DNA of 64,000 nucleotides from a virus. This document shows, in pieces, positions 12,687 through 62,584 of the stretch (the stretch's first letter is position 1; each line of letters begins with the position of its first letter). The stretch is taken from positions 1-64,000 of the IMG/VR virus record IMGVR_UViG_3300005841_000001. One strand, written 5' to 3'. The notes below the pieces were generated by a model that was not told where the DNA came from, did not search any database, and saw only the letters and a list, made by a program, of their open reading frames with translations. The translations under genes were made by a program, and so were the position numbers.

Positions 12687-12715
12687 AGACTAGCCGAGCT
12701 GTACCGGCGAGTCAA
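12687..12715 (-). promoter_or_regulatory. operator-promoter element 1
   Basis: TTGACT-CGCCGGTACAGCTCGGC-TAGTCT. Confidence 0.85.
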
Positions 12716-13392
12716 GACCACGGCGACGCGGGCGAAAGGTACCGCAACGCTCGAGCCTGAACGATCGCCGTCGCGGCATCGGCGGCCGCGCGGTGCGGCC
12801 GCACGCGCTCGAGGTCAAGCAGGCCCTCGCGCGTCGGCACCGCGCCGGTGATGGCCCAGCAAACCTTGGGCACCTCGGTCATGATCGCCGCCAAGCTGGT
12901 GCCCATCACCAGGCTGGCCACCGAGACATCGAAGCACCGGTAGTGCAGCCGGCCGCCGGCGTCCTTGGGCGCGAGGCTTGGCATGTGCAACGCGGTCAAG
13001 CCCTGATCGAAGTGGCTCACCCCGGCGCCCGCCAGATAGATCTCGCCGGGGCCGGTGTTGGTCACCCCGAGGTCGTTGTTGATCAGGTCCTCGACCGAGC
13101 CGGCTTCGACATGCACGCGGGTCGGCCACTCGGCGGTGAGACCTGACTGCTCGTGCATGTCGCGCACCACCTGTTCCAAGAACGCACTGGTTTCCCAGTC
13201 CTCGTCCCCCGGCACGGGGGCGTGGCACTCGGCCGAAGTCGGCGGCCGCCAGTCGATCATCAGCGTACGCAACGGGGAGAGCTGCTCGAGCTTCATGTCC
13301 GTGATGGTCCAGGCCACTTCGAGCGCGGTGTGACGGTGCCGGTACAAAAGCCCGTTGGTTTCTGCGTCGAGCCAGAGCAAACGATCGGCCAT
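12712..13392 (-). CDS. oligoribonuclease-like DEDDh exonuclease
   Basis: WLDAETNGL, MH-x-x-SGL, LAG-x-GV-x-HFD, LHYR-x-FDVS, HRA-x-x-D; GAAAGG RBS. Confidence 0.85.
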   Translation of the reverse strand: MADRLLWLDAETNGLLYRHRHTALEVAWTITDMKLEQLSPLRTLMIDWRPPTSAECHAPVPGDEDWETSAFLEQVVRDMHEQSGLTAEWPTRVHVEAGSVEDLINNDLGVTNTGPGEIYLAGAGVSHFDQGLTALHMPSLAPKDAGGRLHYRCFDVSVASLVMGTSLAAIMTEVPKVCWAITGAVPTREGLLDLERVRPHRAAADAATAIVQARALRYLSPASPWS

Positions 13393-13406
13393 TGTGGACG
13401 GTCCTT

Positions 13407-14021
13407 TCAGGAGTGCGAGCGGATGATCTCGCGGATGTCGTCGATGCTGACGGGCGCGCCGGCCCACAGGTCGCGGTGCACGCTGATCTCGCGGCTCGCC
13501 GGGTTGGTGGCGATGCCGTCGGCCTGGGGCTGGCCGTGCACGATCCACAGACGTTCGGACTTCGTGGGGATCGGCGGGCGCCACCGCGCGGTCTCCACTG
13601 TGCCGCTGTAGGGCAGCGACCACAGCGCGATCGGGGCGAATCCGAAACCGAGGGGTACCTGCACCGGGATCCGGTGCTTACGGAATCCGCGCCCGGTGAT
13701 GATCCGTTCGACCTGTGGAACGGCGTGATCGAGCATCTCCGCTCGAAGCTCGAAGTCTTCGCCAGCGCCGGCGAAGTAGTCGTCGCCCGGGCCGGCGATC
13801 ACCGACAGCCGGCCGAGCATCTCGACGGCGGCGGTCTCGTCGTGGTGGCTCTTCACCGTGCCGGTCGCCCGCAGGTTGCCCAGGTGCCACACGAGGTCGT
13901 CCGGCTCGACGCGGGCGTTGTACGGCTCGAGCACGGCGGCCGCGTCGACGCTCTCGCCCTCGAGGTTGTGTCCCGCAGTGAACCAGGTCTCGCGGTCCTG
14001 CCACTTAGCCCGCAGTGTCAT
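13407..14021 (-). CDS. calcineurin-like metallophosphoesterase homologue, degenerate active site
   Basis: WFT-x-x-H, N-x-x-V-x-PDD-x-V-x-HLG, VHG, ISV-x-x-D-x-W-x-x-x-PVSID scaffold. Confidence 0.6.
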   Translation of the reverse strand: MTLRAKWQDRETWFTAGHNLEGESVDAAAVLEPYNARVEPDDLVWHLGNLRATGTVKSHHDETAAVEMLGRLSVIAGPGDDYFAGAGEDFELRAEMLDHAVPQVERIITGRGFRKHRIPVQVPLGFGFAPIALWSLPYSGTVETARWRPPIPTKSERLWIVHGQPQADGIATNPASREISVHRDLWAGAPVSIDDIREIIRSHS

Positions 14022-14292
14022 CGTCGCCCTCATTGGTCGTCCCCAGCACGGCGCCCGGGCGGACGACGCGGATGTTGAACCCCGGGATCCTTGCCTTGAT
14101 CGGCTGGTTCTGCGCCTCGGGCGGGAGCCGGTACATCCGGAGCTCGCGGCCGCCGAGGTCCACCGTGGACGTCGTCGGCAGCTTGTGCCCGGCACGCTCC
14201 AGCCGAGCGAACTCCCCCGGCGAACCGATGAAACCGATGTGACCGTCCGGGACGGTGAAATGGGTGCCGTTGCTCTCGTCGCTCAGTGGCAC
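14005..14292 (-). CDS. hypothetical protein
   Basis: Fills the gap in the operon; GTG start inferred. Confidence 0.5.
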   Translation of the reverse strand: MPLSDESNGTHFTVPDGHIGFIGSPGEFARLERAGHKLPTTSTVDLGGRELRMYRLPPEAQNQPIKARIPGFNIRVVRPGAVLGTTNEGDDDTAG

Positions 14293-14708
14293 AGGTCGCC
14301 GCCTTCCCACAGTGTTCCCAGCATGTTGAGCCGATCCTGCCCCCAGCAGGGGGTCGGGAACGCGGCCATCGCGCGCCGTGCTTCGCGGCGGTCGGCGCGG
14401 CGATTGCTGTTCAGCAGGTGCCACAGCTCGTTGAGCGCTTTTGCATCGAACGGCTCGGGACGCACATGGCGGTGGTCGAGGTTCGGCAGACAGTAGACCT
14501 CGACCAGCGGGTAGGAGTAAGCGCCCACCACGACGTCGCATCCGGCGTGCGCGAGGATCTCGAGAGTGTCGGTGCGATCGCGGGTCGCGAGCTTCTTGCC
14601 GGCCTGGATCATCGCGACGAATTGGTGCAGGTCCTGATACACCGAGTCCGCCGGGAATGCCAGCGCCGGCGTGTGGTTGAGGCAGATGCCGCGGTAGGTG
14701 CTGCTCAT
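14283..14708 (-). CDS. hypothetical protein
   Basis: ATGA overlap with the upstream gene. Confidence 0.65.
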   Translation of the reverse strand: MSSTYRGICLNHTPALAFPADSVYQDLHQFVAMIQAGKKLATRDRTDTLEILAHAGCDVVVGAYSYPLVEVYCLPNLDHRHVRPEPFDAKALNELWHLLNSNRRADRREARRAMAAFPTPCWGQDRLNMLGTLWEGGDLCH

Positions 14709-15358
14709 CGCTGGTGCGCCTTCCGGGCCGCCTTCTCCATCTTGCGGTTCAGCTTGACCATCGCCTTGATCAGCGGCCGCGACTCGATCCACTGCTTGGG
14801 GGTCATCGAGTCGAGCTCGTCCTGCATCTGGTCGAACGCCGCCATGACACCGTCGGACGGGTCGTCGGGGCAGCTGCGGAGGGTGGCCAGCTCCTCGCGG
14901 AACTTCAGGCCGGCCGCGTGGCGCTTGAGCATCGCGATCGTGTTCTGCCGCCACGAGGGATCCATGTCGACGATCTTGATGGGGTCCTTGTCCTTCGGGA
15001 TCCACCAGGTTTCCTGCTCGAGCAGGCGCAGCCAGCCGACACCGCGCGGCGGCGGGCCCTGCTCCGGCTTCCACAACAGGACGGCCAGCCGGCGCTCGGA
15101 CCGCTCTTCGCGCTCGGCCTTCTCCTCCGGCGTCTCGTCGCGCTGGATGACGAACTCGTATTCGATCTTGCGCGGGTCGGTGTCCTCGACCAGCGGGTGC
15201 GGATGGCTGTACAGGCTGCGCCGGATCTCGCCGCGCCCGACGAACTCGAGCAGCGCCTGCCGAACACCGGCCGGCCCGAGCCCGAACACGTCGTCGCCGA
15301 CGGAGTCCATGAAGAGGTCGACGAACTCGGTCGCCGCCTTCGAGGGGGTAGGGTCCAT
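14705..15358 (-). CDS. hypothetical protein (leaderless)
   Basis: ATG 6 nt after the element's -10 box. Confidence 0.75.
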   Translation of the reverse strand: MDPTPSKAATEFVDLFMDSVGDDVFGLGPAGVRQALLEFVGRGEIRRSLYSHPHPLVEDTDPRKIEYEFVIQRDETPEEKAEREERSERRLAVLLWKPEQGPPPRGVGWLRLLEQETWWIPKDKDPIKIVDMDPSWRQNTIAMLKRHAAGLKFREELATLRSCPDDPSDGVMAAFDQMQDELDSMTPKQWIESRPLIKAMVKLNRKMEKAARKAHQR

Positions 15359-15364
15359 GCGTCG

Positions 15365-15393
15365 AGACTAGCCGAGATCAGTAGGCTAGTCAA
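15365..15393 (-). promoter_or_regulatory. operator-promoter element 2
   Basis: TTGACT-AGCCTACTGATCTCGGC-TAGTCT. Confidence 0.85.
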
Positions 15394-19510: not shown

Positions 19511-20119
19511 TCAGGCCGAGACGCGGACCTGCGCGCGACCGCCGGAGCGCTTCTTCCCGGCCGGCACGATGCCGATGTAGAAGGTCTCCTTGAACTCGAT
19601 CAGCTCGGCGAGCTTCTCGGGGATCGGCACCTTCTTCTCGCGCATCTCGGTGAGGATGGCGAGCAGCGTCTGGTAGTTGAACGTGTCCTTGACGATGTGG
19701 CCCAGCCCGACCTCGTCGAGCACAGGCACCATGTCGTCGACGCTGACGCCGTCCTTGCGGCTGTAGGACGTCCGCGGGCGGAACGAGGCGGTGTAGCCGT
19801 CGATGGTGTCCGCGGTGCGTCCGACGGTGACCCAGGCTTCTTGAATCGCCTTGTCGAGGAGCGCTTCCTCGCGCTCGTGAGCCTTGATCGCGGCCTTGCC
19901 GGACTTGATCGCGGCCTTGATCCAGGTCAGGCGACGAACCATGTCCTCGGGCGTGGCCGGGTTGGCGGCCGGGATGACGCCGCTGGAGGACTCCGGCGCG
20001 TCGACGGGTACCAGCCGGTAACCGTATTCGGCGGCGAGATCGGCCAGCTGTTCGATGTCGGATTCGTGATCTTCGCCGGGGGTGTAGTTCGCGGCGAGTT
20101 CATCCGGGGTGATGGCCAC
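19511..20119 (-). CDS. hypothetical protein (replication module)
   Basis: AAGGAGG RBS; first gene after element 3. Confidence 0.75.
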   Translation of the reverse strand: MAITPDELAANYTPGEDHESDIEQLADLAAEYGYRLVPVDAPESSSGVIPAANPATPEDMVRRLTWIKAAIKSGKAAIKAHEREEALLDKAIQEAWVTVGRTADTIDGYTASFRPRTSYSRKDGVSVDDMVPVLDEVGLGHIVKDTFNYQTLLAILTEMREKKVPIPEKLAELIEFKETFYIGIVPAGKKRSGGRAQVRVSA

Positions 20120-20148: not shown

Positions 20149-20177
20149 AGACTAGCCGAGTTGCTACGGCGAGTCAA
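20149..20177 (-). promoter_or_regulatory. operator-promoter element 3
   Basis: TTGACT-CGCCGTAGCAACTCGGC-TAGTCT. Confidence 0.85.
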
Positions 20178-21378: not shown

Positions 21379-21630
21379 TCACACGGACACCTTGACCAGG
21401 AAGCGACGCCGCCACACATCGTGTGAGAGGACCTCGAGGTCGCCACCGCCGTAGCTGATCAGCCACTGACCGGGGACCAGGTAGAACCTCTGCCCGCCCA
21501 CGGTCACGTTGACCTGGCCGGACGGCCGGCGCTCGACGTCGCCGCCGAGGGTGGTCACGAAGACCGCGAACGCCTCGACGTTGTCGACCTGCTCGCCGGT
21601 GATGGTGTCGGCCATTTCGAGGACCTTCAC
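21379..21630 (-). CDS. hypothetical protein
   Basis: GTGA overlap. Confidence 0.6.
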   Translation of the reverse strand: MKVLEMADTITGEQVDNVEAFAVFVTTLGGDVERRPSGQVNVTVGGQRFYLVPGQWLISYGGGDLEVLSHDVWRRRFLVKVSV

Positions 21631-22331
21631 GGGCACCCCCGCAGGGTGTCGGCCAGCGCGGTACGGGTGGCGGCCAGCGCGGGCAGCTCGTAGGCCTTGA
21701 GGATGGTCACGTACATCCGGGCGTACTCGCAGCGGGCGGGCGGCGCCGGCATCCAGCGGTCGGGGGTCTTGTCGCCCTTGACGTGCTGGTTGGTCTGGTC
21801 GTCGACGGCCAGCAGGTTGCGGGGGTCGTTGGCGAGCCGGATGCGGGGGCGCGCCTGCCAGGCGTAGGCGCCGGAGACCCAGGCGACCTTGAGCGGGACG
21901 ACGTGATCGACGTCGATCTGGCCGCGGCCGACGACGTGCTTGCCGGCGTAGGGCTCGGTCATGTCGATGGCGATGACGGTGCAGCCGTTGGACGTCTGCA
22001 CGGATCCGCCGGAGCGACGGGCGTCGCGGGCGAGGATGTCGTCTCGGGTGTCGCAGCCGTTGCCGTCGGTGTCGAGCCAGGGGGTGCCGAAGGCGTCCCG
22101 GTCGTAACGCGGCGGCGTGGCCGGGCGGCCGAGGGCCGGCGCGGCGCGGTCGAGAACGGTGATGTAGGGGATTTCCGCACGGGCGGCGGCGGCGGACAGC
22201 GTGCCGGCCGGCGGTTCGAGGGCGGTCGGGCCGGGTTCGTCGGCGTTGGCGCGCACGGCGAACCCGGCGATGACGGCCGCCGCGATCAAGACGCCGCCGA
22301 TGATCCACGACGGCTTGTCCTTGATGGGCAT
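21627..22331 (-). CDS. secreted HNH endonuclease (DUF1524/GmrSD C-terminal-like)
   Basis: Signal peptide; YDR-x-x-FG-x-x-W-x-D-x-D-x-NGCDTR-x-x-IL-x-RD, DHVVPL, AND-x-x-NLLAV, N-x-x-x-KGD. Confidence 0.85.
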   Translation of the reverse strand: MPIKDKPSWIIGGVLIAAAVIAGFAVRANADEPGPTALEPPAGTLSAAAARAEIPYITVLDRAAPALGRPATPPRYDRDAFGTPWLDTDGNGCDTRDDILARDARRSGGSVQTSNGCTVIAIDMTEPYAGKHVVGRGQIDVDHVVPLKVAWVSGAYAWQARPRIRLANDPRNLLAVDDQTNQHVKGDKTPDRWMPAPPARCEYARMYVTILKAYELPALAATRTALADTLRGCP

Positions 22332-22364: not shown

Positions 22365-22393
22365 ATCCTAACCGAGCTGTCTCGGCTAGTCAA
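22365..22393 (-). promoter_or_regulatory. operator-promoter element 4
   Basis: TTGACT-AGCCGAGACAGCTCGGT-TAGGAT. Confidence 0.8.
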
Positions 22394-23198
22394 CGAGCGA
22401 GCCGACCGGGACCAGCGGGAAGAACGGCGCCTCGGCGCGGCAGGACGCGGCCGCTTCCGGATCGCCGGCGCGGGCGAAGTAGTCGGCCAGGCCGATCTTC
22501 TGTGTGTGGTACCACTGCCGCTGGTAGGTCTGGAGCTGCTCCAGCGTCATATCGGCGAGCCTTTGCCGGTTCCGTCGCACAGTGGCGTCGTCGCCCGGCT
22601 GCTCGAACGGCAGGCCGCGGGCCACCGCGATCGTCGCGATGACGTCGTTGGTGGCGTTGTGGGCGTCCTTCAGTTCGAAGCCGTAGCGCGCGGCGGTGGG
22701 CGTGAGCTTCCGCATGCCCTTGCCCTTGACCCACTTGTTGACGGCCTTGTCGATGGTCAGCGGGCACAGGACCGGCAAGTCTGGCTTCCGCTCGATCAGC
22801 GGACGGACGCCGTACCGGCGTTGCTCGCGGTCGGACATCGACAGGTCGAACGGCGCATTAAAGATCACCAGCGGGATCCCGGGCTGCAACATCTCGTCGA
22901 GGGTGTCGGTAATCTCGCCGATCGCCTCGGCCGGATCCTGCCCGTGCTCGCGCAGCTCCTCGTTCGTGATCCCGTGGATGTCGACCACCTCGGGCGCGAG
23001 CTCGACGCCGGGGTTGATCAGCCACTCGAGGATCTTCGTTTCGAAGCCGGGTTCGGAGTAAGCCACCGTTGCGCTGACGATTCGATCCTTGTCGCGCTTG
23101 ACGCCCGAGGTTTCGACGTCGTAGATGACGAATGGTCGCTGAAACCACGGGACGGTGTCGGCGGTGGCGTGCGCCCGCCACGGGTAGGTCACGGTCAT
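22386..23198 (-). CDS. DnaQ-like 3'-5' exonuclease (Pol III epsilon family)
   Basis: YDVETSG, DRIV, INPG, IHGIT, FNAPFDL, AH-x-A-x-x-D; GAGGAG RBS. Confidence 0.9.
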   Translation of the reverse strand: MTVTYPWRAHATADTVPWFQRPFVIYDVETSGVKRDKDRIVSATVAYSEPGFETKILEWLINPGVELAPEVVDIHGITNEELREHGQDPAEAIGEITDTLDEMLQPGIPLVIFNAPFDLSMSDREQRRYGVRPLIERKPDLPVLCPLTIDKAVNKWVKGKGMRKLTPTAARYGFELKDAHNATNDVIATIAVARGLPFEQPGDDATVRRNRQRLADMTLEQLQTYQRQWYHTQKIGLADYFARAGDPEAAASCRAEAPFFPLVPVGSLVD

Positions 23199-23238
23199 GA
23201 GCTGGAGCTCCTCGCGAGTGATGGTCGTGGGAGAGCCC

Positions 23239-23260
23239 AGCATAGGGAGAAACACCGACA
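23239..23260 (-). promoter_or_regulatory. RecA-NDp/PafBC-type DNA-damage promoter
   Basis: TGTCGGTG-N8-TATGCT, matching the actinobacterial TGTCGG-N10-TA-N3-T consensus. Confidence 0.6.
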
Positions 23261-23314: not shown

Positions 23315-23348
23315 AATCGATCCGAACAGGGTGCCGTGCGCGGCCAGT

Positions 23349-23657
23349 CTAGCCGACGGAAGCCGGTTCGTCTTCCCCCGGTTTCGGCGCCTTGTCCGTC
23401 ACCCGGATGAAGTAGCGCTTCTCGACCTCGACGTAGGTAGCCACCAGGAAGATGCCAGGACGCACCAACACGTCGGCTTCCGTGGCTTCCGTGACGTGGC
23501 CCGCCGAGGCCGCGGCCTGTACTGTCACAGACTCGGTGATCTTGATGCGCAGACGGTCGTCCGGCTCCACGCTCGCGTCGATGCCCTTGCCGCCGAGCCA
23601 CTGCACCACGGTCGGACCGTTGGTCCTCGACAGCGGCATGTATTCCACATTGGTCAC
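23349..23657 (-). CDS. hypothetical protein
   Basis: GGAGG RBS, coupled to the helicase. Confidence 0.65.
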   Translation of the reverse strand: MTNVEYMPLSRTNGPTVVQWLGGKGIDASVEPDDRLRIKITESVTVQAAASAGHVTEATEADVLVRPGIFLVATYVEVEKRYFIRVTDKAPKPGEDEPASVG

Positions 23658-36538: not shown

Positions 36539-36544
36539 GGTGCC

Positions 36545-48459: not shown

Positions 48460-48488
48460 AGTCTAGCCGAGCTAACTCGGAGCGTCAA
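48460..48488 (-). promoter_or_regulatory. operator-promoter element 12
   Basis: TTGACG-CTCCGAGTTAGCTCGGC-TAGACT. Confidence 0.9.
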
Positions 48489-49903: not shown

Positions 49904-49932
49904 AGTCTAGCCGAGTTATCCCGGTGAGTCAA
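49904..49932 (-). promoter_or_regulatory. operator-promoter element 13
   Basis: TTGACT-CACCGGGATAACTCGGC-TAGACT. Confidence 0.85.
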
Positions 49933-50251: not shown

Positions 50252-50280
50252 AATCTAGCCGACTCAACGCGGAGCGTCAA
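50252..50280 (-). promoter_or_regulatory. operator-promoter element 14
   Basis: TTGACG-CTCCGCGTTGAGTCGGC-TAGATT. Confidence 0.8.
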
Positions 50281-50822: not shown

Positions 50823-50855
50823 TCGGACTCCCGGCAGCGGCGGCCGGGGTACGAA

Positions 50856-50896
50856 GAAGGGCCCCCCTCGGCGACCTCCCCGAGGTGGGGCCCTTC
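50856..50896. terminator. bidirectional hairpin terminator
   Basis: GAAGGGCCCC..CTCGG...CCGAG..GGGGCCCTTC between convergent genes. Confidence 0.65.
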
Positions 50897-50918
50897 CATT
50901 TCGCAGCGCGGGAGGCTG

Positions 50919-50996
50919 CTAGCGGGTGATGCCGTCGAAGTAGTCCTCGAGGGCGTCGACGACGGCTTCGTTCTTGGGGTCGTAGGTGTCGGACAT
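50919..50996 (-). CDS. 25-aa acidic peptide (not in the ORF track)
   Basis: MSDTYDPKNEAVVDALEDYFDGITR*; GGAAAG RBS; only ORF between element 15 and a terminator. Confidence 0.5.
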   Translation of the reverse strand: MSDTYDPKNEAVVDALEDYFDGITR

Positions 50997-51100
50997 GGAG
51001 GCTCGCTTTCCGTTCGGTGATGGGGTGTCGGGCCGGGCGGGGAACCTGTCGGTGCCCGGGGGCGGAGGTAGGTAGCATCCCGCCCGGCCTGACACTTCCG

Positions 51101-51129
51101 AGACTAGCCGAACCTACTCGGCTTGTCTA
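51101..51129 (-). promoter_or_regulatory. operator-promoter element 15
   Basis: TAGACA-AGCCGAGTAGGTTCGGC-TAGTCT. Confidence 0.8.
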
Positions 51130-51971
51130 GTCACGAACCGTCGCACCCGACGGAAGGCGGCCGCTACCGCCTCCGGCGCTCGGTAAATGACGAAATCGAT
51201 CACTGCGTCGAGCACCTCGAGGATGACGAATCCATCATCACGGCACTGCTCCGCCCACCGCTGACGTGCCGTCCTTTGTGGATAGATGATGTGGCTACGG
51301 TCGTCGAAATGGGGAATGTCGCCGAGCATGTGTGCCGGCAGTGCGAAGGCCTCGGCGATCCACCGTGCCTGCTCCGTCATCTCGCGGCGTCGGCGCACGA
51401 TGCCCTCGGAGTAACGGACCAAGTCCATCACGCGAGATGCGTCGTTGGCCGGCGGTCGGACAGACCAGACCGGGTCCACGCTCAGGAACGTCTCGATCCG
51501 GCCGTCCATGTGGATCCGAGCATGCGTCACCGTAGCGTGCGCCTGCCACCCGCCGCCGTGGCCGTTCAGGATGTATGCCTGGCCGGGGAGTGGTGCGATG
51601 CGCGGCATGACTCGGAACTCGTTCCCCATGAACAGGTTGTACGCCTCTCGCCGTCGCTCTTCCCCACGCTGATAGGCGGCCGCGAAGGCTTCGGGTGTCA
51701 GGAACTGCATCAGGCCGAACCCGCTCTCGAAATCCGGTTGCTCGGACCGATGCGTCGGCGTGGCCGGGTGATCCTCGGGCACGACGACTTCGCCGGCCGA
51801 GTACGAGTGGAACGGCGACGGCTCGAACTTGCCACCGATCTGCTCGGCCTGCCATGCCCGTTCGCACGTCTCGCGACAGAAGTCGTCCGACGGGCTCGAC
51901 TCGGGGATCGTCTTCTTGCACCACTGGCACGGCCGTTCGATCACGGCGTCCAGATCTTCGAGGAATCCCAC
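51114..51971 (-). CDS. hypothetical protein with an N-terminal Zn finger
   Basis: CxxC...SPS-x-DFC-x-x-x-C. Confidence 0.65.
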   Translation of the reverse strand: MGFLEDLDAVIERPCQWCKKTIPESSPSDDFCRETCERAWQAEQIGGKFEPSPFHSYSAGEVVVPEDHPATPTHRSEQPDFESGFGLMQFLTPEAFAAAYQRGEERRREAYNLFMGNEFRVMPRIAPLPGQAYILNGHGGGWQAHATVTHARIHMDGRIETFLSVDPVWSVRPPANDASRVMDLVRYSEGIVRRRREMTEQARWIAEAFALPAHMLGDIPHFDDRSHIIYPQRTARQRWAEQCRDDGFVILEVLDAVIDFVIYRAPEAVAAAFRRVRRFVTRQAE

Positions 51972-52726
51972 GGCTCCCCACCCTCCAATTTGGTCAGTCC
52001 GATATCGGCCCGTCGGCCGGCTAGGTTTCCGTCGATGGCTCCGTAGTCGAACATCGTCGGTGGCTGGTAGTCGACCTTGTTGATGTCCGGGAACCGTTTG
52101 TTGTAGTAGTCCTCGGCGTCCTGGTCTCGGGTACGCAAGGCCAGCTCGGTTGATGGTCCCGCAGGCAGCACATGCTCCTCGTCGCGCTCTTGCTGCACCT
52201 CGGCCGCGGTGCGCTGCTCGATCTGGTCGAGCCGGATCCCGACTGCTTGGGAGTACGCGGCGTACCAGTTGCGGGCGTAGCGCTGGTAGAGCGTTTCGGT
52301 GATGAAGTCGCGGCCGGCGGCGTCGGTGGCGAGCCCATTCTGCGCCACGACCGACAGCGTTTCGAAGAGCATTTCGACGCGGTCGATGTCCACCGGTGCG
52401 CCCATCACGAGGGCACCCGAGGGCACACGGTTGCGTTTGTGGCGCAGGTGTACCGAGCGGCAGTGCACCGCGGCCGCGATGTGCGCGATCAAGACGATCT
52501 TCTCTTGCGCGAACGGCGCCTGGACAGTGATCACGCGTTCGGTGACGCCGTCGAGTCCGCGCGCGTCGTCGAGGTCTTGGGGCTGGATCGCGTGGCGCGC
52601 CATCACTTCTGCCGCATGGGACGCGTAGATCCGGGCCTCGGCTTCGGTGGCCGCCGGGTCGCGGGCCTTCGCGAGCAGACTGTTGATCGTCGCGATCCGC
52701 TTTTCGCGGGTCGGCTTCTTGGGCAT
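51941..52726 (-). CDS. DUF2786-domain protein (leaderless)
   Basis: I-x-x-LLAKA...T-x-x-EA...A-x-x-x-M-x-x-H-x-I; start MPKKP 7 nt after the -10 box. Confidence 0.8.
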   Translation of the reverse strand: MPKKPTREKRIATINSLLAKARDPAATEAEARIYASHAAEVMARHAIQPQDLDDARGLDGVTERVITVQAPFAQEKIVLIAHIAAAVHCRSVHLRHKRNRVPSGALVMGAPVDIDRVEMLFETLSVVAQNGLATDAAGRDFITETLYQRYARNWYAAYSQAVGIRLDQIEQRTAAEVQQERDEEHVLPAGPSTELALRTRDQDAEDYYNKRFPDINKVDYQPPTMFDYGAIDGNLAGRRADIGLTKLEGGEPWDSSKIWTP

Positions 52727-52733
52727 GAGGGCT

Positions 52734-52762
52734 ATGCTAGCCGACTTAACTCGGTTCGTAAA
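52734..52762 (-). promoter_or_regulatory. operator-promoter element 16
   Basis: TTTACG-AACCGAGTTAAGTCGGC-TAGCAT. Confidence 0.8.
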
Positions 52763-52777: not shown

Positions 52778-52806
52778 GACCCGCTCCGAGTAAGCCCGGC
52801 TAGGAT
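52778..52806 (+). promoter_or_regulatory. operator-promoter element 17 (weak -35; divergent from 16)
   Basis: CTCCGAGTAAGCCCGGC-TAGGAT. Confidence 0.6.
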
Positions 52807-52837: not shown

Positions 52838-53329
52838 ATGAGCCAGTTCGCCGACGAGCTCGCCGAGCGCATGCAGACCAAACTCGCCAGGCACTTCGCT
52901 CGCATGCCCGGTGAGACAGCCATCTCCATTCCCACCAAGATGCTCGCGCGCGCAGTGGAAGAGATGCTCGCCGACGGCCGCGCCGTCCCCGAGGTCCCGC
53001 GCTACGACCCCGAGCTGGCCGAGAAGCTGAAGTGGTCCGGTCTGACGGCCGACCTCACCACCTTCGTCCCGCCCACGATCGCCGCGGACGTCGACGGCCC
53101 CGGCGTGGTGCTCACCATCCAGCACGGCGTCGAGTACTCCGAGGACGAGGACGCGCCCGCCCCGCCGCCGATCGTGCTCGAGGCGATGCCGGACACGATG
53201 CGCGCGTTCGCGCTGCATCTGCTGTCGGTGTGCGAGCAGGCCGAGGGCGGCACCACGAAGCCCGAGCTGCACGGGCCGGCCGCCGATGTCGAGCTGGAGC
53301 AGCGCGAGATCCGGGTGCTCGGCGGATGA
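52838..53329 (+). CDS. hypothetical protein
   Basis: GAAAGG RBS. Confidence 0.7.
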   Translation: MSQFADELAERMQTKLARHFARMPGETAISIPTKMLARAVEEMLADGRAVPEVPRYDPELAEKLKWSGLTADLTTFVPPTIAADVDGPGVVLTIQHGVEYSEDEDAPAPPPIVLEAMPDTMRAFALHLLSVCEQAEGGTTKPELHGPAADVELEQREIRVLGG

Positions 53330-53589
53330 GGGAAGTTCTGTTCGGCCTCGTCATGCCTTGGGTCAGCATGATCCCCTTCGTGCTGGTCGTCATCGCGGCC
53401 ATCGAGATGGTCGTGGACTGGCTGCCCTCGCGGTTGCCCGTCGAGCCCGAGGAATCGTTCGAGCGCATCGTGATCGTGCCCGGCCACAACGGATTCGCCG
53501 CGCGGATCACCGATCCGCTGTTCTTCCAGGGGCCGCCGGTGGTGGATCCCACGGATTTCATCGGGACCACCGGCCTACTTGACCCCTGA
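53326..53589 (+). CDS. single-TM membrane protein
   Basis: ATGA overlap; N-terminal TM. Confidence 0.6.
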   Translation: MREVLFGLVMPWVSMIPFVLVVIAAIEMVVDWLPSRLPVEPEESFERIVIVPGHNGFAARITDPLFFQGPPVVDPTDFIGTTGLLDP

Positions 53590-53591
53590 GC

Positions 53592-53620
53592 TTGTCGAGC
53601 CGAGTAAACTCGGCTAGACT
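53592..53620 (+). promoter_or_regulatory. operator-promoter element 18
   Basis: TTGTCG-AGCCGAGTAAACTCGGC-TAGACT. Confidence 0.85.
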
Positions 53621-53652
53621 TCCATCAAGACCGACCAGAAAGGAGGCCCCTC

Positions 53653-54312
53653 GTGGAGAGCAGGAACACCCGCGCTCAGTGGGCCGACGACGTTCCCGAC
53701 CTGTACGGGGAGAGCCTCGCCAAGGCCGGCGATTACCTCACCATCGCGCAGGTCAGCAACCTGACGTCGCTGTCGCCGAACACGCTCAGGGACGCACTCA
53801 GCCGGCCCCCGGTGACGCGCAAGGACAACCCGATGTTCGCGCTGTCGCGCCCGGCCGCCCGCATCGCCAACCAGCCGCTCTACTCCCCCGAGCAGGTCGA
53901 GCAGGCGAAGAAGATCCAGAAGGACACCGGCCACCGCCACCTCGGCGGCGGCACCGAGGCTCTCGAGGTCGTCTCGCCCCAGGAAGCCGAACGGGCGGGG
54001 CTCGTCTCGATCGTCGAGTTCAAGGACTTCGCCGGCGTGCACGAGCAGACCGTGCGCCGGTGGGCCCGTGAGCAGGAGTCGTTCCCGCAGCCGGTCGCCC
54101 TGCGTTCGCGCTCGGGCGGCGAGCAGGACGGTGCCCGGGTGCACCCCGGCGTGCCGATCGTGATGTACGAGTTCGACGCCGCGAAGAAGTGGCTGCGCAA
54201 CTACATCGAGACCGGCACCGGCAAGCGCGTCGAGCGGATCGCGGAACACATGCGCGCCGCGCACGACTGGAAGATCCGGGCCGGTTCCCGAGCGGAAGCG
54301 ATCAGCGCGTAA
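53653..54312 (+). CDS. tandem AlpA/Xis/MerR-type winged-HTH DNA-binding protein
   Basis: YLTIAQVSNLTSLSPNTLR and LVSIVEFKDFAGVHEQTVRRW...FPQPV; AAGGAGG RBS. Confidence 0.75.
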   Translation: MESRNTRAQWADDVPDLYGESLAKAGDYLTIAQVSNLTSLSPNTLRDALSRPPVTRKDNPMFALSRPAARIANQPLYSPEQVEQAKKIQKDTGHRHLGGGTEALEVVSPQEAERAGLVSIVEFKDFAGVHEQTVRRWAREQESFPQPVALRSRSGGEQDGARVHPGVPIVMYEFDAAKKWLRNYIETGTGKRVERIAEHMRAAHDWKIRAGSRAEAISA

Positions 54313-54389
54313 ACTCCCCTCTCGAGCGGCTCGTTGCTCAGGGGAGCAAGGAGAAGACCCCGTCGGCCGGTGATGGCGACGGGGTCTTC

Positions 54390-55214
54390 TTACGTCCACA
54401 ATCGACTGACCATTCGCTCGAGGGCCTCGAGCAGCGGCAGCAGCGCACCGAACACCGCGAGCACTGCCACGCCGGCGCCGGCGATCGACAGCGGGAAAAT
54501 CAGCCGTTTCTCTACCGCCTTGCCGGCCTTGAACCGCAGCGGCGTCGGCGAGCCGGCGGAGAACCAACGCTGCCCTTTGATCACCAGCGGGAAGAACAGC
54601 GGCGCCCCGTAGTCGGTGAGTGCGTCGCCAAGAGCGTGCACCCACGCGCCGAGGCCGACGACCAGACCGATCATGATCGGCATCTGGTCGGCGTAGGTGC
54701 CGTGCAGCGCGAGGTACGCGGCACCGGTGAGGATGGTCGCGGTGCCGTAGTCGCGACTCGCCTTGTGCTTGGGCGGCAACGCGCGCAGCGCCCACACCAA
54801 GAACAACCAGATCACCGCGAGGGTTGCCCAGGTACCTGGTGTCGTGCCCCAAATCCCGGCGACCGCGGGAATGCCGCCGAAGAGCAGGCCGAGGCCTGGC
54901 GGTCCGAACGGTGTATGCGTGATGCCGCGGTGCCCGTCGAGGTTCTTGCGATCACGGGCGGTCTTGGTGCGGGCGTACACGCTCGCGGACAGCGTCTGGA
55001 TTGCCGCTGATCCGACAGCGGAGACGACACCGAGAGAGCGGGACGCGGTGGCGTTGGGGTGGTCGAGGTCGGGCGCGATCGCGGCGCCGGCGCACAGCAT
55101 GCCGAGGGTGAGCGCGGTCGGGATGTTCATCGGCTGGTCGAGGACGGGGGCGAAGGTGCTCGCGGCAAGGCCGGCGGTCAGTCCGTGCAGGGCGTGCGTC
55201 GGTCCCATGACCAT
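54390..55214 (-). CDS. YdjM-like membrane-bound metal-dependent hydrolase
   Basis: G-x-TH, PDLDHP, HRG-x-TH, H-x-x-GD-x-LT-x-x-G. Confidence 0.85.
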   Translation of the reverse strand: MVMGPTHALHGLTAGLAASTFAPVLDQPMNIPTALTLGMLCAGAAIAPDLDHPNATASRSLGVVSAVGSAAIQTLSASVYARTKTARDRKNLDGHRGITHTPFGPPGLGLLFGGIPAVAGIWGTTPGTWATLAVIWLFLVWALRALPPKHKASRDYGTATILTGAAYLALHGTYADQMPIMIGLVVGLGAWVHALGDALTDYGAPLFFPLVIKGQRWFSAGSPTPLRFKAGKAVEKRLIFPLSIAGAGVAVLAVFGALLPLLEALERMVSRLWT

Positions 55215-55262
55215 GATCGTCATCCTTTGCGGCGTGTCGAGGCGGAGTCCTCTTGTCAGGCT

Positions 55263-55291
55263 AGTCTAGCCGAGCTACCGTGGTGAGGTTC
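55263..55291 (-). promoter_or_regulatory. operator-promoter element 19 (weak -35)
   Basis: CACGGTAGCTCGGC-TAGACT. Confidence 0.55.
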
Positions 55292-55594: not shown

Positions 55595-55821
55595 GCAACC
55601 GGCGCACCCTCAAGCTCGAGGCGAAGCCGATCTTGGACTCGCGTGCGTTCATCGGGATGGCCAGTCGGCACGGCCAGTTCGTCTGCACCTGTGGACACCC
55701 GGCCGGTCACCTGCACCCCGAGGACGCGATCACCTGCGTGGGCGTCATGGCGGCCGAGCTCACGGTGGACGTCCGCAAGGCCTTGACGCGCCTAGCTAAC
55801 TCGGCTAGTCTCGCAGGATGA
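55591..55821 (+). CDS. small Zn-binding hypothetical protein
   Basis: GTGA overlap; CTCGH...H...C. Confidence 0.55.
   Translation: MSNRRTLKLEAKPILDSRAFIGMASRHGQFVCTCGHPAGHLHPEDAITCVGVMAAELTVDVRKALTRLANSASLAG
55783..55811 (+). promoter_or_regulatory. operator-promoter element 20
   Basis: TTGACG-CGCCTAGCTAACTCGGC-TAGTCT. Confidence 0.85.
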
Positions 55822-56285
55822 CCACCATACCGCTCACCCCCGCCATGTACGCCATGTTGGCGCGCGCCGGCGCCCGGCCGGACGGCAGCATCGAGACCAG
55901 GAAGCAGACCGCCGACGCCTTGCGCGTACGCGGCCTGGCCGTGGTCACGCTGCTGTCGTCAGGCCGGGTCGGCGTCACCCTGACCGCCCTCGGTCGGCAC
56001 CGGCTCAAGGAGGCCGAAGCCGAGGAGGCCGCCGCGCCGCGTCCGCTCGTTACGTGGACATCCGGGCGCTACGGCACGCTCACCGGCACCGTGGGCACTG
56101 TCGACGTCTTCTCGATCGCCCGGAGCACCAGCACGAGCAACCCCGGCTTTTACCTCGACAGCCGGCTGTTCGTCACCTCTCGCGAGCTCCACCGCGACGA
56201 GACCGCGGCGAAAGACACCGCCGAGGTCAACTTCCGGGCGTGGATCGCCGAACTCGGGCTCCAGCCCATCCCTGGCGGTGCGTGA
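55818..56285 (+). CDS. winged-helix-like hypothetical protein (leaderless)
   Basis: T-x-x-AL-x-x-RGL...LT-x-LG. Confidence 0.7.
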   Translation: MTTIPLTPAMYAMLARAGARPDGSIETRKQTADALRVRGLAVVTLLSSGRVGVTLTALGRHRLKEAEAEEAAAPRPLVTWTSGRYGTLTGTVGTVDVFSIARSTSTSNPGFYLDSRLFVTSRELHRDETAAKDTAEVNFRAWIAELGLQPIPGGA

Positions 56286-56588: not shown

Positions 56589-56617
56589 TTGACAAGCCGA
56601 GTAAACACGGCTAGTTT
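56589..56617 (+). promoter_or_regulatory. operator-promoter element 21 (drives the RNA cluster)
   Basis: TTGACA-AGCCGAGTAAACACGGC-TAGTTT. Confidence 0.85.
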
Positions 56618-56665: not shown

Positions 56666-56737
56666 GGCGCACTGGTCCAGCGGAACGGACACCCGGTTCT
56701 CACCCGGGAGACTCGAGTTCGACTCTCGGGTGCGCTA
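56666..56737 (+). tRNA. tRNA-Glu(CTC)
   Basis: Acceptor GGCGCAC/GTGCGCT, D stem GTCC/GGAC, anticodon stem CCCGG/CCGGG with loop TT-CTC-AC, T loop TTCGACT; CCA not encoded. Confidence 0.88.
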
Positions 56738-56908
56738 CGCAAGTGATCCCCGGTCAAGCGTGTCGGACTGCAAACTTCGGGGCAGGCCGACTGCGGGATT
56801 GGATCACAGGACGGGAGAAATACCGGGCAGAGCTCCCGCCCTTACCCTGGTGCGGTCTGGACCACCGCCTCTAACGACCAGGGCTCGACAGTCAGCGGGA
56901 ACGGTCCA

Positions 56909-57637: not shown

Positions 57638-57666
57638 GTTCGTTGCCGAGCCACGTCGGTTAGTCT
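57638..57666 (+). promoter_or_regulatory. operator-promoter element 22 (weak -35)
   Basis: TGCCGAGCCACGTCGGT-TAGTCT-6 nt-GTG. Confidence 0.65.
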
Positions 57667-57672: not shown

Positions 57673-57942
57673 GTGAACCACTGGCTACCGTGGTTGCTCG
57701 CGATGGGCAACCTTTCGTCGATCTTTCTCACCGGCCGCGGCAAGCTCGCCGGCTTCGTTGTGTTGGTGCCTACGCAGCTCGTGTTCGCGGGCTACGCCGC
57801 CTACACAGATCAACTCGGGTTTGTGCTACAGGGAGTAGCAATGGCGTCCATGGCGGGCGTCGGTTGGTATAAATGGGTGAACGATGGCGTCCATCGGGAT
57901 GGCCGCCAACCCCGTGAAAAAGTATCGCCGGCAACCGAGTAG
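57673..57942 (+). CDS. 3-TM membrane protein, PnuC-like half transporter (leaderless)
   Basis: Three TM segments; G[FW]...Q...GW-x-x-W pattern. Confidence 0.55.
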   Translation: MNHWLPWLLAMGNLSSIFLTGRGKLAGFVVLVPTQLVFAGYAAYTDQLGFVLQGVAMASMAGVGWYKWVNDGVHRDGRQPREKVSPATE

Positions 57943-58100: not shown

Positions 58101-58129
58101 TTGACGCTCCGAGCTAACTCGGCTAGTCT
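58101..58129 (+). promoter_or_regulatory. operator-promoter element 23
   Basis: TTGACG-CTCCGAGCTAACTCGGC-TAGTCT. Confidence 0.9.
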
Positions 58130-59216: not shown

Positions 59217-59245
59217 TAGACAAGCCGAGTTAACTCGGCTAGACT
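59217..59245 (+). promoter_or_regulatory. operator-promoter element 24
   Basis: TAGACA-AGCCGAGTTAACTCGGC-TAGACT. Confidence 0.88.
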
Positions 59246-59251: not shown

Positions 59252-59971
59252 ATGACCGAGACGCAGAAGCCCCTCGCCCAGCAGACGCCCCGCGAGATCG
59301 ACGAGCAGCTGGCCACCTTGGACGGCGCCTACCTCGCGATGTCCGACAAGCGCAAGGCCAAGATCGAGTTCGCCCACAGCCTCAACGGCGAGCGCGCCCG
59401 CTACGTCGGCCGCCGCCGCAAGGAGTGGCCGACCACCACCGACGAGGTGCTAGAGCAGCTGGCCCTCAAGCTGGCCGACGAGAAGATTCCGGCCTACGAC
59501 GTCGCCAAGGTCACCGAGCTGATCGAGACCGTCGACGGTCTGGCTCGCGAGATGCGCGCCAACCGCGAGGCCTGCGAACCGCTGGACGCCGAGTACGACC
59601 GCCGCCACTGGGCCCGGTTCTTCCAGGTCGAGGACGGACACATCCACTCCGGGATGCGTTGCCAGGGCGGTTCGATCCGGGTCACCACTCGCGTGGGGTG
59701 GCGGCCCGAGCTGTCCGACAAGGACGTGACCGAGGCCGTCGCCGCCCTTGGGCCGACGCTGTGCACGAAGTGCTTCCCCTCGGCGCCGGTCGAGTACACC
59801 CGGGGCCCGGAGAAGAAGCTGACGCCGGGCTACTGCGGCGGCCAGGGCAAGCTGGGCGTCGAGCTCCAGATGCGGTACGCGAGCCCGCGCGGGAAGTGCC
59901 CGGACTGCGGGCAGCGCGTCGGCGTGACGAGCCTCGGGAAGGTGCGCCGGCACAAGCTGCCCACCGCGTGA
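59252..59971 (+). CDS. conserved actinophage Zn-binding protein (leaderless)
   Basis: W-x-RFF-x-V...GHIH...C...W-x-PELS...LCT-x-CFPSAPV. Confidence 0.8.
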   Translation: MTETQKPLAQQTPREIDEQLATLDGAYLAMSDKRKAKIEFAHSLNGERARYVGRRRKEWPTTTDEVLEQLALKLADEKIPAYDVAKVTELIETVDGLAREMRANREACEPLDAEYDRRHWARFFQVEDGHIHSGMRCQGGSIRVTTRVGWRPELSDKDVTEAVAALGPTLCTKCFPSAPVEYTRGPEKKLTPGYCGGQGKLGVELQMRYASPRGKCPDCGQRVGVTSLGKVRRHKLPTA

Positions 59972-60011: not shown

Positions 60012-60040
60012 TTGCGTAGCCGAGCTAACTCGGCTAGACT
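60012..60040 (+). promoter_or_regulatory. operator-promoter element 25
   Basis: TTGCGT-AGCCGAGCTAACTCGGC-TAGACT. Confidence 0.88.
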
Positions 60041-60046: not shown

Positions 60047-60256
60047 ATGGTCCAGATCAGTGAGTACGGCGAGCACCCGGTCTTCAGCACGAAGTGCATC
60101 CCCTGCGGGCGCTCGATCGGGCTGTGTCGGAACGAGGACGGCGAACCGGTGTACGTGGACGACCTCGGTCGCACGCTTTGCCCGGACCCGGAGCAGGACG
60201 GCGAACTGTTCATCCACGAGCCGACCAACCACGTGTTCCCCCGCGACTTGGTCTAG
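60047..60256 (+). CDS. small Zn-binding hypothetical protein (leaderless)
   Basis: CxxC...C...H-x-P. Confidence 0.7.
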   Translation: MVQISEYGEHPVFSTKCIPCGRSIGLCRNEDGEPVYVDDLGRTLCPDPEQDGELFIHEPTNHVFPRDLV

Positions 60257-60932: not shown

Positions 60933-60961
60933 TAGACAAGCCGAGACAGTTCGGCTAGTCT
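60933..60961 (+). promoter_or_regulatory. operator-promoter element 26
   Basis: TAGACA-AGCCGAGACAGTTCGGC-TAGTCT. Confidence 0.85.
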
Positions 60962-60990: not shown

Positions 60991-61443
60991 ATGATCACCG
61001 CGACCTACACCACTCCCGAGATCAAGTTCGCCGACTTCGCCGACTACAACCCCGGCCACGGCACCGAGACCGTACGGGAGACCGTCCTCGGTCTGCGGGA
61101 CGAGTACGCCGCGACCAAGATCAAGACGGTCACTACGCCGGTCGGGCACCAGTTCATCGTCACCGGCCCGATCGTCGACATCGCCCGGCTGGCCGCGCTG
61201 TACAACCAGCGCATCGACGGCAGCACGCTCCCCACCGCCGAGCACTACGAGCACATGCGCACCGTCGAGGCCCGGCAGCTCGGCTGCTGGCTCGACGAGG
61301 GCATGTACGCCCGGGGCAGTGCGCTGCACGTCGCCGCTATGGACGAGCTGCACCTGCGCGCCCTGGACGAGGACGTCGAGCGTTGCCACGGCTGGGCGCT
61401 GGAGGACTACACCGTCGGCAAGAGCGTCTTCCCGGTCCGCTGA
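60991..61443 (+). CDS. hypothetical protein
   Basis: GAGGAG RBS. Confidence 0.75.
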   Translation: MITATYTTPEIKFADFADYNPGHGTETVRETVLGLRDEYAATKIKTVTTPVGHQFIVTGPIVDIARLAALYNQRIDGSTLPTAEHYEHMRTVEARQLGCWLDEGMYARGSALHVAAMDELHLRALDEDVERCHGWALEDYTVGKSVFPVR

Positions 61444-61518: not shown

Positions 61519-61547
61519 TTGTCTAGCCGAGCCTGCTCGGCTAGTCT
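61519..61547 (+). promoter_or_regulatory. operator-promoter element 27
   Basis: TTGTCT-AGCCGAGCCTGCTCGGC-TAGTCT. Confidence 0.88.
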
Positions 61548-61590: not shown

Positions 61591-61872
61591 ATGACCACCA
61601 CGACCACCGCCCAGCACCGTTCCGCCGGCGCCCTCGCCACCGGCCAGATCGCCGACGACATGATCCTGATCCACCACGCGGCCGTCACCTACGGCTACGA
61701 CGACATGGCGCAGGACTACCTCAACCGGTACGACGACGCGATCGCCTACCTGCACACGGACGCCACCCTCGACGCCCAGATCGCCGGGATCAAGCTCACC
61801 CTCGCCGGCCCCGCCGCGGGCCGCTGCCCGAGCCACGGCTACTACCCGCAGGGCCGCTGCGGGATCTGCTGA
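61591..61872 (+). CDS. hypothetical protein with a C-terminal Zn motif
   Basis: GGAGG RBS; C-x-x-H...C-x-x-C. Confidence 0.7.
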   Translation: MTTTTTAQHRSAGALATGQIADDMILIHHAAVTYGYDDMAQDYLNRYDDAIAYLHTDATLDAQIAGIKLTLAGPAAGRCPSHGYYPQGRCGIC

Positions 61873-61879
61873 CCACCTC

Positions 61880-61906
61880 GAGGCCCCGCCCACCGGGCGG
61901 GGCCTC
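61880..61906 (+). terminator. hairpin
   Basis: GAGGCCCCGCCC-ACC-GGGCGGGGCCTC. Confidence 0.55.
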
Positions 61907-61929
61907 GGCCGCTCTTCGAGGAGGACACC

Positions 61930-62151
61930 GTGAACCTGCGCAAGTGGATCAAGGAATTCCGCGAGGACTGGGCCGCCGCCGGTGAGGCCCTCGACCGGGC
62001 GGAGCGCGCCCGTGCGCGGCGTCGCGCGGCCGCGCCCCGGCCGCCCCAGGACGCCACCGCGGCCGCCGCTGGGGGTCTCGCCGCGGCCGCCGGGGCGCAG
62101 GCTGCGCAGGCCGCCGCTTGCCCGCCGGACGCGGGTTGCACTGGGGCTTGA
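61930..62151 (+). CDS. Ala-rich hypothetical protein
   Basis: GAGGAGG RBS; its TGA stop is part of the -35 box of element 28. Confidence 0.6.
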   Translation: MNLRKWIKEFREDWAAAGEALDRAERARARRRAAAPRPPQDATAAAAGGLAAAAGAQAAQAAACPPDAGCTGA

Positions 62152-62176
62152 CGCTCCGAGCTAACTCGGCTAGACT
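62148..62176 (+). promoter_or_regulatory. operator-promoter element 28
   Basis: TTGACG-CTCCGAGCTAACTCGGC-TAGACT. Confidence 0.9.
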
Positions 62177-62205
62177 AGGTCTCACACCGAGCAGGGAGGC
62201 ACCCC

Positions 62206-62559
62206 GTGGACATCACCGCCGCGATCACCGAGTTCCGCAAGCACAACGCCGCCCTCCGGCGGATCGAGCAGCGCACCGGCACCCGCGTCGCCGCCGGGAA
62301 CTGGACCGTCAGCCCGCGCACCCGCGCCGCCGTCGCCCGCCACCGCGACGCCATCGACGACGTCCGGACCGCGCTCGACCTCGCCGGGCACCGCTACCTC
62401 GTGGCCACGCTGGTGATCGAGGCGCAGGAGCGCAGCAACCTCGCGTGGGCACGCCGCGAGCGCCTCGCGTACGAGGTGGCCCGCCTGACCCCGGCGATCG
62501 CGGCCGAGGGCAAGCGCGTCCGGGCCTACGTCCAGAACCACACCCCCGCCGCGGCTTGA
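62206..62559 (+). CDS. hypothetical protein
   Basis: GGAGG RBS; its TGA stop is part of the -35 box of element 29. Confidence 0.7.
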   Translation: MDITAAITEFRKHNAALRRIEQRTGTRVAAGNWTVSPRTRAAVARHRDAIDDVRTALDLAGHRYLVATLVIEAQERSNLAWARRERLAYEVARLTPAIAAEGKRVRAYVQNHTPAAA

Positions 62560-62584
62560 CGCTCCGAGCTAACTCGGCTAGACT
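62556..62584 (+). promoter_or_regulatory. operator-promoter element 29 (identical to 28)
   Basis: TTGACG-CTCCGAGCTAACTCGGC-TAGACT. Confidence 0.9.

Follow-up and report, generated by a model that had tools for sequence, protein, structure and literature searches.

Based on the analysis of a stretch of viral DNA of 64,000 nucleotides (nt), bases 1-64000 of the IMG/VR record IMGVR_UViG_3300005841_000001 (full size 101,657 base pairs, bp) and hereafter called the window, we propose that a repeated 29-bp element serves as the standard promoter of the early and middle genes of this phage and that it probably includes an operator for a phage-encoded protein, whose action would probably be repressive. 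Between 29 and 31 copies are dispersed across 50 kilobases (kb), all within the non-structural region at 12.6-62.6 kb, and almost every non-structural gene of the phage, along with a single tRNA, would be expressed from them. The element consists of a -35 box (TTGAC), a 17-bp spacer and a -10 box (TAnnnT). The spacer contains a conserved dyad, CCGAG-N4-CTCGG, often with a flanking G and C, whose axis falls between positions 15 and 16 of the element and thus in the centre of the spacer. When the element was searched as a degenerate 29-mer with at most three mismatches, 30 matches were obtained, against 0.00 expected from 100 shuffles. A preliminary description of this DNA had listed 29 copies, and the element is present at every listed coordinate; a weaker extra copy, with the -35 box AAGACG and the right arm GTCGG, lies at 23346-23374 (-), upstream of the DnaQ-like exonuclease gene 22386-23255. 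The same description had reported no copy in the virion and lysis operon at 1-8.4 kb, which holds in a scan of the genome, and full copies are also absent from 64-101.6 kb, where a TraB/GntR module is followed by portal, capsid, tape-measure and baseplate genes.

How uniform is the element? As first claimed, the spacer is an ungapped 17 bp, with TA at positions 24-25 and T at position 29, in 29/29 copies. TTGAC is perfect in 16 of the 29 and matched at four of its five bases in eight further copies; three copies (52778, 55263 and 57638) have almost no -35 box. The half-site next to the -10 box had been called nearly invariant, and CTCGGC followed by TAG(T/A)CT is indeed nearly constant, with a looser left half at positions 6-8. 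The central four bp, on the other hand, were wrongly described as free, as position 16 is A in 24/29 copies (1.5 bits). The distance between the centres of the two arms, which flank -20.5, is 9 bp. A T-A step is favoured at the axis, and T-A also predominates there in the elements of relatives. The copy at 39653 is the best palindrome, as reported, but an extension of the symmetry into the -35 and -10 boxes is found in only about half of the copies.

The element is very probably a promoter, judging from its position relative to the genes. In 12 of the 29 copies a start codon (ATG in 11, GTG in one) lies exactly 6 nt past the -10 box, and in one further copy an ATG follows at 7 nt; the chance of an ATG at any fixed position in the phage genome is below 1%. 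These start-codon-adjacent copies each open an open reading frame (ORF) of 69-601 amino acids (aa) that was found independently by a coding-potential gene call. The predicted first base of the transcript, 7 nt after the -10 box, is A in 22/29 copies. On the minus strand, leaderless ATG codons are predicted behind the copies at 12687-12715 (ORF 12450-12680), 15365-15393 (ORF 14705-15358), 28992-29020 (the 601-aa ORF 27180-28985), 39653-39681 (the best palindrome; ORF 39341-39646), 41288-41316 (ORF 40679-41281), 42458-42486 (ORF 42227-42451, back to back with the terminase gene), 47277-47305 (ORF 46761-47270) and 48460-48488 (ORF 48220-48453). On the plus strand they are predicted at 55783-55811 (ORF 55818-56285), 59217-59245 (ORF 59252-59971; -35 box TAGACA and a near-perfect long palindrome) and 60012-60040 (ORF 60047-60256), and the single leaderless GTG belongs to ORF 57673-57942, behind the weak element without a -35 box at 57638-57666 (+). 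The ATG at 7 nt is that of the DUF2786 gene 51941-52726, whose weaker element at 52734-52762 (-) stands at a point of divergence.

Most of the other copies are followed by leaders of 16-49 nt with GGAGG-like Shine-Dalgarno ends. On the minus strand these copies are found at 20149-20177 (23-nt Shine-Dalgarno leader to ORF 19511-20119), 22365-22393 (-10 box TAGGAT, 27 nt to ORF 21627-22331), 35855-35883 (26 nt to ORF 35328-35822), 40391-40419 (24 nt to ORF 39689-40360), 49904-49932 (about 49 nt to ORF 48853-49848), 50252-50280 (right arm GTCGG, 29 nt to ORF 49929-50216), 51101-51129 (-35 box TAGACA, short leader to ORF 50791-51078) and 55263-55291 (weak and without a -35 box, 33 nt to the YdjM-like gene 54390-55223). 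Their plus-strand counterparts lie at 52778-52806 (weak, without a -35 box, at the point of divergence, 25 nt to ORF 52838-53329), 53592-53620 (perfect dyad, 26 nt to the tandem winged-helix gene 53653-54312), 58101-58129 (short leader with GAGGAGG), 60933-60961 (23 nt to ORF 60991-61443), 61519-61547 (37 nt to ORF 61591-61872), 62148-62176 (23 nt to ORF 62206-62559) and 62556-62584 (24 nt to ORF 62615-62896). Some of these copies are followed by ATC, which was considered as a leaderless start codon and rejected, as such copies have a Shine-Dalgarno leader and a downstream ATG. No ORF lies behind the copy at 56589-56617 (+), which faces a tRNA-Glu(CUC) gene called by ARAGORN at 56666-56738 (+), 42 nt after the predicted start. 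A second ARAGORN call, tRNA-Gln 52192-52283, is 92 nt long, runs antisense within a gene and is doubtful. Every copy therefore faces a gene on its own strand, in agreement with the preliminary description. Two rightward genes inside the leftward block, encoding the terminase (42493-43968) and a TIG-domain protein (50361-50822), have no element.

Relatives of the phage provide a second line of evidence. Scans with the exact element gave no match in IMG/VR or in 185,579 reference bacterial and archaeal genomes. When metagenomes were scanned with the exact core, 34 contigs were obtained, of which 22 are high-GC soil relatives (102 kb in total, with patchy 65-81% nucleotide identity to the phage) carrying 63 element matches, or 60 once reverse-strand readings of palindromic sites are removed. 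In addition, a complete IMG/VR relative of 128,202 bp (the 128-kb relative) was reached through a profile of the tandem winged-helix protein; it has about 50 proteins in common with the phage at 27-65% identity and contains 31 elements, only in its non-structural parts. No repeated promoter element was found in GMA6, the nearest structural relative among isolated phages. In the relatives the -10 box is constant only in T, A and the final T, the bases required by the principal sigma factor, while the arms of the dyad are retained and the spacer is always 17 bp. The 6-nt spacing to the start codon recurs at 16 ATG copies on the soil contigs and at 13 ATG or GTG copies in the 128-kb relative. The start-codon geometry and this variation of the -10 box strongly support the original assignment of the element to the principal-sigma promoters. 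Because a six-frame search revealed no sigma-70 domain (and no HTH_3 or HTH_31 domain either), the host principal-sigma polymerase is the expected reader of the element.

What is the function of the dyad? It is quite likely an operator for a DNA-binding protein, as suggested beforehand, and the support for this claim is indirect: the arms are conserved across diverged phages, their deviations are not compensated and the perfect dyads are all inside promoters. In the 101.6-kb genome 12/12 perfect dyads lie within elements, and dyads with one mismatch outside elements number 14 against 12.8 expected; hence there are no stand-alone operators and nothing stoperator-like in the phage genome. The consensus half-site shifts in both arms between lineages, from CCGAG/CTCGG here to mostly CCTAG/CTAGG in the 128-kb relative, and a joint shift of this kind is the expected product of a change of specificity in a symmetric binder. 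A different possibility is that the dyad acts as a nucleic-acid hairpin in read-through transcripts, which it would terminate, insulate or stabilise at the 3' end; every element would then form a junction of terminator and promoter. The element overlaps or abuts the stop codon of the upstream gene in 16 copies (gaps of -26 to +7 nt) and so is transcribed, the best copies fold at -20 kcal/mol, and one copy, at 39654-39679, is the only one to score as terminator-like. Nevertheless, a selected RNA or DNA hairpin is unlikely, because the arms are uncompensated (Watson-Crick counts equal the shuffled expectation at every pair in both the phage genome and the soil relatives), the predicted energies of the 29 copies vary erratically from -1.8 to -20.4 kcal/mol, many stems being merely 5 bp long, and a T-tract follows one of the 29 copies only. 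Pairing is absent from most inner stem positions in the 128-kb relative; the sole association between paired positions, found there at pair 11-20 (21/31 versus 14.8 expected, p = 0.012), corresponds to two half-site types that co-occur. We thus attach very little weight to a hairpin in the transcripts.

The element might also represent a real promoter family without a dedicated regulator, in which the spacer is kept for exceptional strength and homogenised by recombination, the symmetry being a by-product of the flanks of the -35 and -10 boxes. The near-invariant right arm beside the -10 box and the looser left arm fit such an explanation. The same 29-mer occurs at 62148 and 62556 despite unrelated flanks, and the shuffling of cassettes between relatives makes recombination at elements plausible. 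However, the left arm CCGAG is kept beside the variable positions 6-8 in three diverged lineages, the arms change together between lineages and positions -27 to -23 are not read by any known sigma-A contact. Moreover, homogenisation within one genome cannot account for conservation across genomes whose proteins have diverged as far as those of the 128-kb relative. A promoter family of this type is improbable in our view, and we favour the operator.

Which protein would recognise such an operator? The binder is probably a phage MerR-like regulator that docks at the dyad. Scans of about 85 proteins against Pfam or PHROGs, together with six-frame searches for several helix-turn-helix families, yielded three DNA-binding regulators: a GntR/UTRA protein and the products of 53653-54312 and 35858-36538. 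The latter two are modelled with a MerR fold, and the chance that one of them binds the dyad is, in our estimate, about even. The first candidate (53653-54312, +; 219 aa) comprises two winged helices, one MerR-like (residues 26-100) and one Xis/BldC-like (residues 111-205). Its structure was modelled with a predicted local distance difference test (pLDDT) score of 89.7, and residues 26-100 resemble the MerR-family domains of BmrR, TipAL, EcmrR and SoxR (Z 4.3-5.8). The match to Pfam MerR (24.8 bits) is below the 28.2-bit cut-off and HTH_17 is also sub-threshold, while the protein matches phrog_597 'DNA binding protein'. All of its 56 homologues are metagenomic, and none was found in 50,697 isolated phage genomes. 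It is conserved in every relative for which that region is available, its own promoter has a perfect dyad, and with its two neighbours it forms the only early-region block that is syntenic across four relatives. The second candidate (35858-36538, -; 226 aa) begins with a MerR-fold winged helix (residues 9-73), behind which come a long helix (71-89) and a C-terminal domain, with fold matches to CvkR (Z 8.0), SoxR (7.5) and TipAL (7.3). Its putative promoter at 36545-36574 (-), with TTGCAT, an 18-bp spacer, TAGAGT and 6 nt to a leaderless ATG, has no dyad; a GTCCA box is present in the spacer.

The remaining proteins that came into consideration were set aside. The GntR/UTRA regulator (68509-69288) was rejected as binder, as its own intergenic region has a different dyad, CAACTGG-N5-CCAGTTG. 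This inverted repeat, located with TGGT/ACCA-type boxes in the GntR/DUF2637 intergenic region at genome position 68431-68508, appears from its sequence to be a separate local switch of the TraB-like module. ORF 59252-59971 is present in an unrelated 50-kb phage described below, but it was rejected since homologues are widely distributed among phages of Mycobacterium and Microbacterium. ORF 52838-53329 offered no usable fold lead.

Several observations weigh against a dedicated phage regulator of the kind that we propose. In the elements of the 128-kb relative each arm is loosely conserved at its inner three bases. Conservation is far stronger in the right arm than in the left, and since the right arm abuts the -10 box, some of its conservation could come from an extended -10 or a spacer effect and not from operator function. 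Between the 128-kb relative and contig L044 the tandem winged-helix protein hardly differs, but the dominant dyads do, so that there is no clean co-variation of protein and operator. The gene of the second candidate adjoins a non-coding island of 1 kb (36540-37590) that contains 17 TGGAC/GTCCA boxes, whereas no other 1-kb window has more than 10; these boxes may be the real target of its product, and the island may represent either an origin or another pair of regulator and site. The true binder could also be encoded among the small ORFs, about 50 of which have no recognisable fold. Finally, an unrelated IMG/VR phage (L129-L131; 50,038 bp, 59.6% GC) uses this design in 7-8 promoters, in which the dyad is GCCGAC-TCGA-GTCGGC and an ATG follows the -10 box at 7 nt, and yet it lacks any homologue of the tandem winged-helix protein; only the terminase and one widespread ORF are common to this phage and the one under study. 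The same layout and similar half-site in two unrelated phages would suit a host protein that binds the dyad and couples the early programme to a host regulator or a physiological signal. However, the 50-kb phage was found with a pattern that already required AGCC-N10-GGCTA, and the resemblance is largely ascertainment. The lack of the exact element in the reference bacterial and archaeal genomes is a further point against a host binder, and the dyad is not known to fit any actinobacterial operator (LexA, HspR, DasR, IdeR, SoxR). A host protein is accordingly a poor prospect, and an operator for a phage-encoded protein remains our preferred interpretation.

We envisage the following mechanism. 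The host principal-sigma RNA polymerase would read the -35 TTGACN, the 17-bp spacer and the -10 TAnnnT, and would start transcription at the base 7 nt past the -10 box. For about 13 units the first base would be the A or G of the start codon, giving a leaderless mRNA; most of the remaining units would have a leader of 16-49 nt with a Shine-Dalgarno sequence, and one unit would produce a tRNA. The dyad would be bound by a phage-encoded protein of two-fold symmetry or pseudo-symmetry, and occupancy of -28 to -14 would repress the promoter, either by blockage of the polymerase or by distortion of the spacer. We lean, if only slightly, towards repression as the net effect of the bound protein, because the core promoter is near consensus with optimal 17-bp spacing and an activator is not needed. 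Could the dyad instead bind a MerR-like activator that remodels the spacer to boost transcription or to maintain it after host shut-off? The DNA-binding domains of both candidates are modelled with a MerR fold, and MerR-type promoters likewise have their dyad at the centre of the spacer (PMC1526738). However, MerR-type activation needs a spacer of 19-20 bp (PMC8113463, PMC7722741) and that of the element is 17 bp in 29/29 copies, while hexamers near consensus leave an activator with little to do. Activation of this type strikes us as highly doubtful.

Under repression, the whole non-structural programme would be shut off or held down, and the structural and lysis genes, which have no element, would escape. 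The preliminary description had envisaged that the programme is switched at once. The quality of the left arm points instead to graded rather than simultaneous control: this arm is perfect in 1/6 replication-block promoters (12-36 kb) but in 18/23 promoters at 39-63 kb (Fisher p = 0.0105). The replication-block promoters, with their degenerate left arms, would be repressed later or less tightly than those of the small-gene arrays. A bolder version of the model, to which we assign a low but not negligible probability, is that a MerR-fold protein works here 'in reverse', silencing about 30 promoters with optimal 17-bp spacing where its relatives repair a single over-long one of 19 bp, and that a ramp in its concentration times the non-structural programme of the lytic cycle. 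Each promoter would then be tuned individually, with perfect dyads on small early genes and degenerate left arms on replication genes.

The phage genome ends in direct terminal repeats of 120 bp, has 68% G+C and an estimated completeness of 100%, and 134 genes were predicted in it by the coding-potential gene call. The structural and lysis genes form one arc without the motif, which begins at about 70 kb, crosses the terminal repeat and ends at 8.4 kb. This arc includes the amidase gene (2462-3388) and, outside the window, the genes for the portal (70106-71701) and capsid (84067-85443), and it also encodes a tape-measure-like protein of 1111 aa and baseplate J. The region at 8.4-64 kb is non-structural, encoding a UvrD-like helicase, a PD-(D/E)XK nuclease, a primase-polymerase, the DnaQ-like exonuclease and an SNF2 helicase, and is rich in small ORFans; a module of FtsK/TraB, DUF2637 and GntR follows at 64-69 kb. 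The capsid protein is about 50% identical to the capsids of Gordonia and Brevibacterium myoviruses; for the terminase, identity to isolated phages is 38% at most. Megablast and tblastn with the 145-1839 ORF retrieved no close relatives among isolated phages. From the capsid relatives, the 64-69 kb module, the G+C content and the leaderless genes we infer that the host is actinobacterial. No integrase or resolvase domain was detected in six-frame domain searches of the phage genome, and for this reason a Cro-like early shut-off within the lytic cycle would be the simplest picture, although the phage may have a non-integrating temperate state.

A common late-promoter motif was not found in the upstream regions of the late genes. 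Immediately upstream of the major capsid gene, at approximately 83.93-84.00 kb of the genome, a directly repeated sequence of about 20 bp (GCTTGGTRCTGACCGGCGC) is present twice. A degenerate copy of the element is present at genome position 74506-74534 (+), about 130 nt upstream of a late-region gene for a protease-fusion protein of 2957 aa; its left half is perfect, the right arm is CCCGG and the -10 box is GAGAAT. In the relative L015 an intact element with a leaderless ATG (3741-3769, +) runs antisense to structural genes just upstream of the tape-measure homologue. At the corresponding place (genome position 91273-91301) the phage under study retains only a decayed remnant, with a good left half and no -10 box. 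Homologues of the early-region genes at 39-63 kb differ in order and orientation in L013, L033 and the 128-kb relative (L048-L054), and the only block to stay together is 52838-55223, which comprises an unknown ORF, the tandem winged-helix gene and the YdjM-like gene. Self-contained promoter-gene cassettes seem to have been shuffled freely among the relatives. In the soil relatives L013, L020, L036, L039 and L043 many transcripts with leaders share a GTTCCGCC-like motif shortly after the predicted start, which may be a conserved 5'-leader signal and was not seen in the phage under study. Twelve low-GC (40-47%) contigs from the metagenome scan (L014, L016, L017, L024, L027, L032, L034, L035, L038 and L040-L042) share a near-identical sequence of about 41 nt, in which the same core is followed by GTGGAAACGCGCGCCC. 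It has no family match in Rfam and is an unrelated repeat.

How does this system compare with known ones? In the literature we found no natural precedent for a dyad that fills the spacer in tens of phage promoters. Lambdoid phages have two control regions, OR and OL, with three sites each for Cro and CI, and graded affinity orders the repression. As in these phages, the putative dyad operators overlap early promoters, would serve a dimeric helix-turn-helix protein and would be graded in affinity, but in place of OR and OL there are about 30 single-site promoters, each heading 1-3 genes. Phage P1 has 22 dispersed C1 operators, which are asymmetric and 17 bp long (PMC8546580). In both cases the site of one regulator, a putative one here, is repeated some 20-30 times in a genome of about 100 kb, with many copies overlapping the promoters of separate units; unlike the P1 operators, the site described here is a dyad at one fixed place inside a stereotyped promoter, and unlike P1, a temperate phage with a plasmid prophage, the phage has no detectable integrase or resolvase. 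The stoperators of cluster A phages are asymmetric, bound by a monomer and mostly located within transcribed regions, where they stop elongation (PMC9283540, PMC6550527). They resemble the sites described here in that an actinobacteriophage carries tens of dispersed copies of a putative repressor site, and the contrast drawn with them in the preliminary description is correct, since the sites here are symmetric and always located in promoters, as the distribution of the perfect dyads shows.

Cluster O mycobacteriophages carry over 30 copies of a 17-bp palindrome, TGTTCGG-N3-CCGAACA, many of them inside genes, and 8-9 leaderless SigA-like promoters that are separate from the palindromes (PMC4351075). 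The number of short dyads and the leaderless SigA-like promoters are similar, but here the dyad and the promoter form one unit; because the palindromes are placed apart from the promoters, cluster O was dropped as a precedent for a dyad in the spacer. Regulators of the MerR family bind palindromes centred in promoter spacers of 19-20 bp (PMC8113463, PMC7722741, PMC1526738), and some members, such as CvkR, are repressors (bioRxiv 10.1101/2022.05.13.491168). The promoters of MerR, BmrR, SoxR, CueR and EcmrR have, like the element, a strong palindrome whose centre falls in the spacer and which extends over the end of the -35 box, and the candidate binders are predicted to have MerR-fold winged helices. 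The CvkR system is also similar in its leaderless genes and in its repressing mode, which for the phage is our inference. In contrast to MerR-family promoters, the spacer is 17 bp rather than 19-20 bp in the phage and in all relatives, and there are about 30 target promoters instead of one or two. Furthermore, the candidate 53653-54312 has two winged helices in one chain in place of a coiled-coil dimer.

What would such a system mean for the phages that possess it? It is probably a very dense version of the 'one repressor, many operators' circuit of phages and not a new regulatory principle. If our interpretation is correct, a module of 29 bp would combine promoter, operator and, in many units, translation start, in about 30 copies. 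Such a collection would be a clean system for studying how the strength of an operator sets the timing of a gene, as well as a test of MerR-fold proteins as global repressors on 17-bp spacers, and it would provide a set of strong, repressible and leaderless promoters for high-GC actinobacteria. The self-contained nature of the modules would explain how early cassettes are shuffled between relatives without loss of expression, and uncultured soil actinophages would have in common a compact, sequence-defined programme of transcription that is conserved across them.

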